A stretch of 64,000 bases of DNA. Origin: Escherichia phage vB_EcoM_YN3. The position numbers and the translations under genes are program-made. Below, one piece after another: positions 23,331 through 23,568 of this stretch. Below the pieces are notes generated by a model, which was not told the DNA's origin, did not search any database, and was given only the letters and a program-made list of their open reading frames with translations. Position 1 is the first letter of the stretch. Each line of letters begins with the position of its first letter. The DNA lies in sequence record PV763136.1, one strand, 5' to 3'.

Positions 23331-23453
23331 TAAATTTAAAACATGGTACTTAGGATCTAGTATATTCTACATAAGTTAAGTATATGTACTTAGTACCATA
23401 AGTACTAGATCTTTTATTTTTTATTATTTAGTTATTTTAGTTATATTCTTTAT

Positions 23454-23497
23454 GTGTCCGTATCACGGACAGTTAGTGTCCGTATCACGGACAGTTA
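23454..23497. repeat. two tandem copies of 22 bp unit GTGTCCGTATCACGGACAGTTA, each with palindrome TGTCCG-N5-CGGACA
   Basis: exact direct repeat, adjacent to an AT-rich imperfect palindrome at 23340-23450. Confidence 0.7.
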
Positions 23498-23568
23498 ATA
23501 GTTTCTGTTCCATGGTGAACATAAAACATACAAATCCTTATAGTACAGATATTTAAGTTTTTACTGGT

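Follow-up and report, generated by a model that had tools for sequence, protein, structure and literature searches.

A candidate iteron-type origin cassette beside a small winged-helix protein gene in Vequintavirus and other Vequintavirinae

Short tandem repeats that carry inverted repeats are found both at replication origins and at operators. The lambda operators OR1-3 and OL1-3 are 17-bp dyads with short spacers, several in tandem, which lie beside the gene of a small DNA-binding protein and overlap the promoters under their control. In the large virulent phage T4 the origin oriE, which is non-essential, combines short repeats with small proteins of its own, RepEA and RepEB; origins of T4 and T7 pair a promoter with an AT-rich element, and GATC clusters are typical of P1/oriC-type origins. 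The RepA_N/HTH_36 domain has been characterised mainly in Gram-positive plasmids and in the Vibrio satellite PLE. The rV5-like phages are widely used in O157 typing, biocontrol and therapy work, and we know of no replication origin for them. In the rV5 genome paper a skew-based origin search found transcription switches only (PMC3606486). Two described origins are among those closest to the locus studied here: ori-lambda, which has four 18-bp iterons with short spacers and a 38-bp AT-rich stretch (PMC3349717), and the origin of PLE, a Vibrio cholerae satellite whose RepA binds semi-palindromic iterons through its N-terminal domain (PDB 4RO3) and is required for PLE replication (PMC7145576). 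The phage ICP1 targets the same PLE iterons with the same domain, carried by its Odn protein (PMC8263062).

The locus lies in a 64-kb stretch of Escherichia phage vB_EcoM_YN3 (PV763136.1), hereafter the window, from a Vequintavirus, that is, an rV5-like myovirus of E. coli. Its features are as follows.

22372-22950, minus strand: downstream gene, rV5 ORF77 (192 aa), the first gene after the cassette.
23040-23330, minus strand: GC-rich (55-61%) structured block within the conserved cassette; folding z about -4 on both strands.
23343-23411, no strand: the GATC block, inverted repeats that interleave and include GATC at 23354-57 and at 23408-11; pi = 0.009.
23412-23453, no strand: AT tract of 42 bp, 7% GC and 71% T on the given strand; proposed DNA-unwinding element.
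23454-23497, no strand: two exact 22-bp units with 17-bp dyads; proposed iterons, putatively sites for winged-helix dimers.
23498-23515, no strand: hypervariable spacer of constant length from the array to the conserved flank; pi = 0.28 (23498-23520).
23516-23568, no strand: conserved 3' flank of the gene; pi = 0.026.
23569-23919, minus strand: gene of a 116-aa winged-helix DNA-binding protein, rV5 ORF79 (PHROG 12838, 5e-80).

We propose, at a probability of roughly 45%, that this element is the core of an origin cassette made of iterons and an unwinding element, conserved across the Vequintavirinae and bound by the 116-aa protein.

The array consists of GTGTCCGTATCACGGACAGTTA in two copies, an exact 22-bp tandem at 23454-23497 as the initial annotation had described it, and gives the top TRF score of the window (88). 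Both units hold the perfect 17-bp dyad TGTCCG-N5-CGGACA (23455-23471 and 23477-23493), with linkers of 4-5 bp. Across about 164 kb of phage sequence, namely the window plus 100 kb from its close relative BP9, no other copy of the dyad was found at up to one mismatch. The E. coli RefSeq genomes contain no match to the array element, and its one match in a plasmid database is a phage genome listed there as a plasmid. A scan of viral contigs with the degenerate pattern GTGTCCG-N5-CGGACAG was uninformative, returning mostly single chance matches in unrelated contigs. Consensus scans found no terminator-like site in 22300-24700 and no promoter-like site within 23454-23497, the closest promoter-like elements lying 18 bp to the right of the array on the plus strand and about 70 bp to its left on the minus strand (-10 at 23384..23379). 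Neither a DnaA box nor an IHF site was identified at the cassette. Small ORFs have been annotated across the array and across the GC-rich block; these are unlikely to be genes.

A comparison of 18 genomes, the window and 17 relatives, showed that the array is kept in every relative examined, so that its absence from close relatives, which the initial annotation had named as grounds for abandoning the idea, is not what we find. The array holds 2-6 units (four in 11 of the 18 genomes) with a period of 21 or 22 bp throughout, and unit number differs even among near-identical phages. The ancestral array is a set of four non-identical units of 21-22 bp, and the exact pair in the window is a reduced form of it. 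Centres and linkers vary, with seven different centres seen. The dyad arms are invariant save for one variant, every half-site being either TGTCCG or TGCCCG; the latter is found in the right arm of unit B in 14 of the 18 genomes, in the left arm of unit C in FV3 and in the right arm of unit D in L148.

This variant bears directly on an RNA-level function, in which hairpins in the transcript would serve as 3' stabilisers, processing sites, a terminator or an attenuator. Each unit can indeed form a stem of 6-7 bp (-8 to -9 kcal/mol), the array is transcribed as part of the gene's 3' untranslated region, conserved stems with variable loops are also typical of hairpins, and copy number varies as in REP-like elements. 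The 51-nt array stretch also folds far better than its shuffles (z about -6), because of the way the dyad units are built. However, on the sense strand the unit B variant is a C-A mismatch in mid-stem. TGCCCG weakens the minus-strand hairpin in unit B and in unit D of L148, and the plus-strand hairpin in unit C of FV3, leaving -3.8 (as in unit B) or -3.0 kcal/mol against about -9 for intact stems. Since the variant weakens the hairpin on either strand, no single-strand hairpin model fits all three cases, whereas a symmetric DNA half-site does. Moreover, compensatory stem changes were seen in no array unit of the 18 genomes, the sense-strand hairpins precede an A-rich run and not a U-run, and the dyads of other genera, AT-rich ones such as TGCAAAATTTGCA included, would make weak hairpins and yet keep their spacing of about 23 bp and their tracking of protein type. 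We consider an RNA-level function very improbable; the repeats very probably serve as sites at which a protein binds double-stranded DNA. Particular RNA candidates were also rejected: (i) an intrinsic terminator, as no GC-rich hairpin with a U-run is found on the transcribed strand; (ii) a structured RNA repeat, REP-like or type III antitoxin-like, given the C-A mismatch in unit B (14 of 18) and in unit D of L148 (-3.8 vs -8.9 kcal/mol) and the lack of an Rfam family; and (iii) an Rfam match to rli43, which is noise (25 bits for a threshold of 100). Whether searched at the gathering or at the E-value threshold, Rfam offered no meaningful family for any of three queries: repeats, palindrome block and GC-rich block.

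The best candidate to bind the repeats is the product of the gene at 23569-23919, which the initial annotation had also listed, because its homologue is an initiator domain for which iteron binding has been shown by experiment and because sites and proteins co-vary across genera (see below). Of 118 Vequintavirus records, 114 carry the protein at 98-100% identity. It falls just short of the Pfam cut-offs for DUF6945 (27.4 bits, cut-off 28) and HTH_36 (24.5 bits, cut-off 25) and does not match Pfam RepA_N. Its only strong relative of solved structure is 4RO3, found at E=3e-6 from the single sequence and at 8.6e-11 with a 16-sequence profile over about 85 residues, the next match of the profile search reaching only E=0.006. 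Foldseek likewise ranks 4RO3 first, followed by the RepA_N N-terminal domains of Staphylococcus (4PQL, 4PT7 and 5KBJ), and the fold is shared with the RepA_N/PLE RepA family across the whole domain, N-terminal strands and winged helix alike; a BFVD structure search matches ICP1 Odn. In the AlphaFold model the protein is predicted to be a single winged-helix domain with disordered ends; the usable structure is the alignment-based model, single-sequence prediction having reached only pLDDT 39. Pfam, PHROG and the AlphaFold model gave no second or effector domain, and Pfam and PHROG gave no nuclease or other effector attached or adjacent to the protein. Among homologue searches, a word-index search returned orthologues only and an exhaustive HMMER search 8 proteins, and a profile search added 30%-identical homologues of 182-217 aa from unrelated lytic phages. 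No repeat arrays were found near the genes of these longer homologues, which counts against the origin reading. The annotators of the record labelled the gene 'putative transcriptional regulator'; weak similarity is behind both this label and that of 'replication initiation protein'.

The same cassette is present in three other genera of Vequintavirinae, represented by Mydo, BIS47, 4MG, GAP31, PVP-SE1 and Hena1, in the order small HTH_36 gene, two dyad sites at about 23 bp, A-rich tract, 2-3 GATC, promoter and structured leader. There the counterpart proteins clear the HTH_36 cut-off (32.9-42.5 bits), and Mydo, 4MG, GAP31 and Hena1 have a homologous A-rich tract of 37-43 nt. The counterpart was located through a structure-search match to the Mydo protein and then the annotated HTH_36 gene in the Mydo genome; a genus-specific module, as suggested by synteny at the neighbouring phosphoesterase, proved wrong, the counterpart cassette lying elsewhere in the genomes of the other genera. 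The sequence of the dyad site, which is AT-rich in some of these phages, tracks the type of protein and not taxonomy, site and protein co-varying in five lineages on an otherwise conserved cassette: BIS47, for example, shares its protein helix and its site with PVP-SE1 and not with its genus-mate Mydo. A tentative extension of the origin reading, somewhat less likely than not, is a modular cassette. In it a stand-alone RepA_N-like origin-binding protein would work with tandem dyad iterons of its own, and the shared elements would be the unwinding element, the GATC cluster and the promoter. Protein and iterons, which set the specificity, would have passed between genera regardless of phage phylogeny, with iteron number drifting between 2 and 6 in near-identical phages. 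If this is true, it would be the first origin defined in the Vequintavirinae, and a virulent phage would be using a minimal initiator that lacks an effector and swaps its specificity in the manner of PLE replicon modules; the swaps would perhaps avoid cross-talk with co-infecting relatives or parasites. The five lineages, with different recognition helices and dyads on a conserved backbone, also form a natural system for RepA_N/HTH_36 recognition.

The DNA on the side of the array away from the gene is constrained too. The AT tract adjoins the first array unit directly, is A-rich on the gene's sense strand, carries 9-bp sub-repeats (TTTTAGTTA) and is unchanged in 16 of the 17 relatives (pi = 0.003). 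The AT-rich upstream region reported by the initial annotation is real, the window's lowest-GC 100-bp stretch (19% GC) falling at this locus. The imperfect palindrome that it placed there stands only in part: the GATC block contains two true inverted repeats, ATGGTACTTAG/CTTAGTACCAT at 23343-53 / 23389-99 and GATCTAGTA/TACTAGATC at 23354-62 / 23403-11, but these are interleaved (A-B...A'-B') and not nested. A hairpin or cruciform was ruled out on this ground and by folding that does not differ significantly from shuffles (z -0.9 to -1.7). The motifs of the block are unique within the window. No other DNA nearby is as conserved as the AT tract and the GATC block, whose diversity is 10-50 times below that of four-fold codon sites (for scale, pi in the flanking genes is 0.09-0.15 at four-fold sites, while codon positions 1+2 give 0.015-0.025), and the dyad arms, the AT tract and the GATC block are under purifying selection. 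The spacer on the gene side of the array shows no indels across the 18 genomes. Beyond it, the flank contains a sigma-70-like site on the plus strand, TGAACA-17-TATAGT at 23516-23544, directed antisense into the gene, with a score of 9/12 matches that is frequent by chance. The GC-rich block is probably the transcribed leader of the next gene; one-sided changes in it preserve G-U pairs on the minus strand, and no compensatory pairs were found, within-genus divergence being too small and the between-genera alignment poor. The invariant sequence of the AT tract counts against an unwinding element, in which composition matters above all; sequence-specific unwinding elements do exist (PMC4980987).

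Published transposon data for Bas54 suggest how much the locus matters to a phage. An 'Intermediate' rating is given to the gene as well as to the small ORF that overlies the array, with insertion counts of 13.6 and 18.1 against 78-192 in the neighbours 0209-0211 and 0214-0216, and this equal, roughly tenfold drop fits one functional unit. Insertions in the gene or array region lower fitness, and they are not lethal. The 'Intermediate' rating means that the cassette is not a sole essential origin, and a separate non-coding region of 2.5 kb in Bas54, which took no insertions, is an alternative place for one. Insertions in the leader ORFs are well tolerated and ORF77 is non-essential. The cumulative GC-skew minimum is 1.5 kb from the locus; we give it little weight and do not count it as independent evidence, because it coincides with the change in transcription direction (PMC3606486). 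As a side observation, the AT-hook protein encoded at 21168-21506, a binder suggested by the initial annotation, is essential in Bas54, and nothing ties it to the array.

A different protein-DNA function, such as a packaging or partition-like site, or the recognition or exclusion of the phage itself, a competitor phage or a satellite, would also suit a non-essential locus; recognition or exclusion would have a parallel in the PLE origin and ICP1 Odn. The domain family targets iterons in the ICP1/PLE conflict (PMC8263062), site specificity is swapped between genera regardless of taxonomy, and near-identical phages differ in copy number. It would, however, have to operate with neither nuclease nor effector attached or adjacent, with the terminase genes 4.5 kb from the array and other genes between them, and with no satellite carrying the sites among the E. 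coli genomes or in the plasmid database, whose one match is a phage genome. We regard such a function as improbable.

Transcription control is the main rival to the origin reading. According to it, a winged-helix regulator (an activator, anti-activator or roadblock) acts upstream of a promoter located past the AT tract; the repeats would be operator or enhancer sites, the promoter would drive the structured, GC-rich leader with the genes beyond it, and the A-rich tract would be bent DNA or a UP-like element. In the other genera a good sigma-70-like promoter, TTGATC-16-TATAGT, directly follows the GATC palindrome and precedes a leader that opens with a conserved 5' hairpin, and a conserved promoter and leader in this place make a transcriptional role plausible. 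Judged from the sequences, the GATC block of the window is homologous to this palindrome and promoter, and the homologous -10, TATACT (minus strand, 23384..23379), is kept there; TAGTAC (23407..23402), at a distance of 17 nt, is a poor -35 equivalent. Dyads of 17 bp at a period of about two turns describe the lambda OL/OR operators equally well, and a 116-aa protein without an effector domain, a reduced-fitness but non-lethal transposon phenotype and the name chosen by the annotators are all in keeping with a regulator. Other observations argue the opposite: (i), the dyad centres are about 90-155 nt upstream of the putative start, past the 42-nt AT tract, an unusual position for a repressor or a class I/II activator. 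(ii), the one strong relative of the protein whose function has been established is a replication initiator domain. (iii), the promoter region of the gene contains no autoregulatory (inverted) half-sites, and no other site was found in the sequence scanned. (iv), insertions in the leader ORFs and in ORF77 are tolerated well and those in the sites less well, which indicates that the sites matter beyond expression of the next gene. Transcription control is, on balance, somewhat unlikely. The initial annotation had offered an origin or a repressor operator array, and both remain the leading readings, although classical operator geometry does not hold, because no promoter overlaps the sites.

If the cassette is an origin, dimers of the 116-aa winged-helix protein would bind the 17-bp dyads TGTCCG-N5-CGGACA, and the spacing of half-sites by one helical turn and of dyads by two would place all dimers on one face of the DNA. 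The dimer complex, or the bending it causes, would then destabilise the abutting 42-bp AT tract, where DNA synthesis would begin via the phage replisome or via transcription from the adjacent promoter. Binding, unwinding and replication initiation at the cassette are steps that we infer. Like iteron origins, the locus has several direct repeats, each about 17-22 bp long, that share an orientation and are spaced in helical phase, and an AT-rich element that directly adjoins them, its unwinding being predicted; it does not have the second initiator domain that recruits or loads replication proteins. Because the protein is a DNA-binding domain only and insertions are tolerated, the cassette would be one initiation route among several, by analogy with T4 origins. 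The cassette is the first concrete origin candidate in the Vequintavirinae, helpful but not essential according to the transposon data, and it offers a precise target of about 230 bp.

How does this locus compare with the systems introduced above? T4 oriE differs in its 12-nt repeats and in RepEA/RepEB, which have no known kinship to the 116-aa protein, and at T4 and T7 origins the unwinding element is downstream of the promoter and not upstream as here. The array resembles the lambda operators in being a tandem of dyad sites of about 14-17 bp, and departs from them in that its sites overlap no promoter (the nearest are 18 bp away on the plus strand and about 70 bp on the minus strand). The likeness to ori-lambda is closer: four dyad repeats in the common form of the array, at a period of about 21-22 bp, adjoin an AT-rich tract of about 40 bp, and transcription of the putative initiator gene runs on through the repeats into the AT tract. 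In lambda, however, the iterons are part of the O gene itself, and O recruits P-DnaB through a C-terminal domain; the sites here fall outside the gene, and the 116-aa protein has no second domain. No similarity to lambda O rose above threshold, with a weak Phage_rep_O match for BIS47 only. With iteron plasmids (RK2, pSC101, P1, F, R6K) and the RepA_N plasmids of Staphylococcus (pSK41, pTZ2162) the locus shares repeats of 17-22 bp about two turns apart, clustered GATC sites of the P1/oriC kind, a winged-helix protein, there the initiator, and an adjoining AT-rich element, there an unwinding element, that carries short repeats of its own; it is unlike them in that no DnaA box or IHF site was identified and no autoregulatory inverted half-iterons are present, and in its much smaller protein.

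The PLE system is also among the closest parallels. The protein here corresponds to the N-terminal domain only (116 aa), without the C-terminal domain of RepA, and the element belongs to a 137-kb virulent myovirus with its own replisome and not to a satellite. Its sites lie directly 3' of the gene and not in a large non-coding region, with no poly-A centre within the repeat. The locus is non-essential in Bas54, and its role in replication is a predicted one. Yet the 116-aa protein is a homologue of the RepA N-terminal domain (4RO3) in both sequence and fold, the cognate sites, as predicted here, are in both cases direct repeats that each contain an inverted repeat, and in both cases the specificity of protein and site appears to have been swapped between related elements (PMC7145576, PMC8263062).

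The window comes from a Vequintavirus, an rV5-like virulent E. coli myovirus with a genome of ~137 kb. Its top-scoring tandem repeat (TRF score 88) consists of two exact tandem copies of GTGTCCGTATCACGGACAGTTA at 23454-23497, each holding a perfect 17-bp dyad TGTCCG-N5-CGGACA, just as the initial annotation had described. No further such dyad, with up to one mismatch allowed, was found in the window or in an additional 100 kb from the genome of BP9, the top match among 118 phage records that match the 621-bp stretch 22950-23570 at 87-97% identity. The array lies in a 618-bp non-coding gap (22951-23568) with minus-strand genes on either side, at the lowest-GC point within the window. 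Leftward transcription from a divergence point at ~25,000 runs through these two genes, ORF79 and ORF77 of rV5, to the tRNA cluster and the late genes (PMC3606486). The cumulative GC-skew minimum lies 1.5 kb from the array; since it is also the transcription switch (PMC3606486), it carries little weight as origin evidence.

Features of the array locus, with nucleotide diversity (pi) across 18 genomes
22372-22950, minus: ORF77, 192-aa protein, borders the gap
23040-23330, minus: GC-rich block, pi 0.05
23316-23339: 24-bp linker, pi 0.11
23343-23411: inverted-repeat / GATC block, pi 0.009
23412-23453: AT tract left of the array, 42 bp, 7% GC, pi 0.003
23454-23497: repeat units, pi 0.02
23498-23520: 23-bp spacer right of the array, pi 0.28
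23569-23919, minus: ORF79, 116-aa protein, borders the gap
Flanking genes, four-fold degenerate sites: pi 0.09-0.15
Flanking genes, codon positions 1+2: pi 0.015-0.025

The most likely mechanism, to which we give a probability of roughly 45%, is that this cassette is an iteron-plus-unwinding-element origin, where a minimal RepA_N-like protein of the ORF79 type would bind the iterons beside the unwinding element. The anatomy of an iteron origin is present: phased tandem dyads abut an AT-rich tract, with a GATC cluster and an adjacent gene related to an iteron-binding initiator domain. The AT tract and the GATC block are less diverse than codon positions 1+2, and hence under stronger constraint than coding positions. 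Short repeats that act sequence-specifically have been described in unwinding elements (PMC4980987), and sequence-specific unwinding could account for the invariance of the AT tract and for the 9-bp sub-repeats within it. Left of the tract are two inverted-repeat pairs with two GATC sites; they are interleaved rather than nested and fold no better than shuffled sequence, so that of the AT-rich imperfect palindrome proposed initially the AT-rich tract and the inverted repeats stand, and "palindrome" is only loosely right. The spacer right of the array is hypervariable, above four-fold sites, and constant in length in the 18 genomes; a conserved hairpin was sought in it and not found. A sigma-70-like site (23516-23544, plus; TGAACA/TGGACA - 17 nt - TATAGT/TATAAT) lies in a conserved segment 18 bp from the array and faces antisense into the winged-helix gene ORF79; with 9/12 matches, it may be due to chance.

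The initial annotation had pointed to conservation in related phages as a check, and comparison with a further 17 Vequintavirus genomes, plus two contigs from metagenomes, bears it out: the array is present in all 17, with two to six units. Across the 18 genomes, 11 have four units, four have three, two have two (the window and phage navn) and one has six, the period being invariably 21 or 22 bp. The identical pair in the window appears to be the two outermost units of the common four-unit array, joined by deletion. Two short-read assemblies terminate inside or beside the array. Half-sites read TGTCCG in 117 of 132 cases and TGCCCG in the other 15, while the central 5 nt of the dyad takes seven forms and the linkers vary too. 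This sole arm variant occurs in the right arm of unit B in most genomes, the left arm of unit C in FV3 and the right arm of unit D in contig L148. If the units are folded as RNA or ssDNA, it weakens the minus-strand stem in unit B and in unit D of L148, and the plus-strand stem in unit C of FV3 (-3.8 or -3.0 versus about -9 kcal/mol); in a two-fold-symmetric duplex site, it is simply one tolerated half-site change. A consensus scan found no terminator-like site at the array, and the sense strand past the hairpins carries an A-run, not a U-run. For these reasons we treat the units as predicted binding sites of a dimeric protein; the arm variant settles most of the choice between DNA site and RNA hairpin. 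RNA-hairpin and other readings are minor ones. One helical turn separates the half-sites and two turns separate the dimers, which would place all dimers on one face of the helix.

The ORF79 protein scores narrowly below the Pfam cut-offs of both HTH_36 and DUF6945; it is a member of PHROG 12838, whose label is "replication initiation protein". Its only strong match among solved structures is 4RO3 (E=3e-6 with the single sequence; E=8.6e-11 with a 16-sequence profile, the second match being at 0.006). With an AlphaFold model built from the same alignment (pLDDT 75.7), Foldseek also ranked 4RO3 best, followed by N-terminal domains of Staphylococcus plasmid RepA, one of them bound to iteron DNA. 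Distant homologues of 182-217 aa (P0009, P0011, P0014, P0017 and P0019; loci L139 and L140) occur in unrelated lytic phages encoding PolA and DnaB-primase; they have acidic tails ending in ...(D/E)xPF, like the SSB C-terminal tip, and their genes are third in an early operon, beside tRNA genes and an RNA ligase / kinase pair, as in rV5.

A structural match to a protein of Proteus phage Mydo led to a 98-aa HTH_36-annotated gene, CPT_Mydo_044, upstream of a non-coding gap resembling that of the window, and from there to counterparts in Klebsiella phage BIS47, E. coli phage 4MG, Cronobacter phage GAP31, Salmonella phage PVP-SE1 and Erwinia phage Hena1.

Shared order past the stop codon of the HTH_36 gene (92-98 aa) in the other genera
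1: two dyad sites, ~23 bp apart
2: A-rich tract, 37-43 nt long and ~70% A (values from Mydo, 4MG, GAP31 and Hena1)
3: two or three GATC, palindromic in most lineages; one GATC in PVP-SE1
4: sigma-70-like promoter, TTGATC-16-TATAGT; not evident in Hena1
5: GC-rich leader
6: next gene

A similar AT-rich stretch occurs in PVP-SE1 and BIS47. The A-rich tract starts with (C/A)ATAAAGAA, as in the window, whose minus strand AAAAGATCT...TTATGGT...TATACT aligns with AAAAGATCT...TATGGT...TATAGT of the other genera. This backbone is conserved between genera, whereas the dyad sites differ.

Tandem dyad sites
Vequintavirus: TGTCCG-N5-CGGACA
Mydo: CGGACA-CTGG-TGACCG
4MG / GAP31: TG(C/A)CAAAAACG
PVP-SE1 / BIS47: TGCAAA(A/T)TTTGCA
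Hena1: TGACAAATTTGTCA

The type of site tracks the recognition-helix type of the protein, not taxonomy: BIS47, a Mydovirus, has the helix and the site of PVP-SE1, a Seunavirus, and not those of its genus-mate Mydo. A profile of the six proteins from other genera, scanned against Vequintavirus sequence, found only ORF79 (E=0.0027), which is therefore the sole counterpart, at another genome position. This co-variation of site and protein is the strongest evidence that ORF79 may bind the repeats.

A transposon study of the Vequintavirus Bas54 bears on function.

Transposon insertions in Bas54 (bioRxiv 10.1101/2025.11.20.689424)
bas54_0212 (ORF79): 17/20 TA sites hit, "Intermediate", mean count 13.6
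bas54_0213 (small ORF over the array): 4/7 TA sites hit, "Intermediate", mean count 18.1
bas54_0209-0211 and 0214-0216 (flanking genes, GC-rich-block ORFs, ORF77): mean counts 78-192
bas54_0220 (AT-hook gene 21168-21506): essential, 1/20 TA sites hit
Bas54 92785-95298 (non-coding region, window ~61,900-64,000): no insertions reported

The equal and specific drop in the protein gene and its sites is consistent with gene and sites forming a single functional unit, fitness-relevant and dispensable. The cassette as sole essential origin is excluded; it is possibly one among several initiation routes. Individual origins of T4 are dispensable.

The AT-hook gene (minus) encodes a 112-aa protein of PHROG 3330 with an AT-hook-like RRRGRP motif. 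The stretch at ~61900-64000 is the start of a ~2-2.5 kb region between convergent transcription units, labelled "non-coding" in the rV5 paper (PMC3606486); the cumulative GC skew reaches its maximum here (63037). An 18-bp tandem repeat (63670-63704) and three TTGCCTGAAGAG-like motif copies also lie in the region, which could hold an essential cis element.

The main rival, next in probability and less likely than the origin, is that the cassette controls transcription. A conserved promoter and leader do follow the AT tract; however, the dyad sites lie at least 90 nt upstream of the putative start point, no promoter overlaps them, and the leader and next gene tolerate insertions well. Of the alternatives suggested initially, operator array and origin, both still lead, the former without the geometry of a classical operator. 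The GC-rich block (55-61% GC within an AT-rich phage) is probably a structured 5' leader or non-coding RNA: its folding z is about -4 on both strands, one-sided substitutions retain G-U pairs on the minus strand, and the counterpart leader of other genera has a conserved 5' hairpin GAAGUG...CACUUC. An 18-nt inner hairpin is missing in some relatives, no Rfam family matched the block, and the small ORFs called in it by annotators are doubtful.

Some neighbouring features and related records deserve mention. ARAGORN calls a 99-nt tRNA of undetermined type at 20377-20475, with a four-base anticodon loop reading (atcc), annotated tRNA-OTHER or Lys in relatives; a tRNA at 20782-20866 (Tyr in relatives) was found by Rfam and missed by ARAGORN. 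The BP9 record PP488543.1 carries at ~125-133 kb (locus L146) genes annotated IS2 InsA, integrase, exodeoxyribonuclease VIII and AlpA. Such genes are uncommon in virulent Vequintavirus genomes and may reflect chimeric assembly or mis-annotation. The array also occurs in PLSDB CP057073.1 (102629-102717), which is listed as a "non-mobilizable plasmid" of 137.5 kb from a cattle-faeces isolate of E. coli; the record evidently represents a Vequintavirus genome entered among plasmids, and a carrier state or contamination could explain the filing.

The initial observation is confirmed and extended, and a literature search found no published description of the cassette. The origin we favour is a known kind of element. 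Ori-lambda, with four iterons of 18 bp, short spacers between them and 38 bp of AT-rich DNA (PMC3349717), has nearly the dimensions of the cassette. 4RO3 is the N-terminal domain of RepA from the Vibrio cholerae satellite PLE; PLE requires this RepA to replicate, and the sites it binds are semi-palindromic direct repeats in the origin of PLE (PMC7145576). The ICP1 nuclease Odn, which is among the BFVD structural matches of ORF79, has the same domain, and its cutting requires the PLE iterons (PMC8263062). Unlike PLE RepA, the rV5-type protein is the N-terminal domain alone, without the second domain. What is new is a stand-alone putative binder without an effector domain, sites located 3' of the binder's own gene, and a swapping of specificity within a subfamily of large virulent phages.
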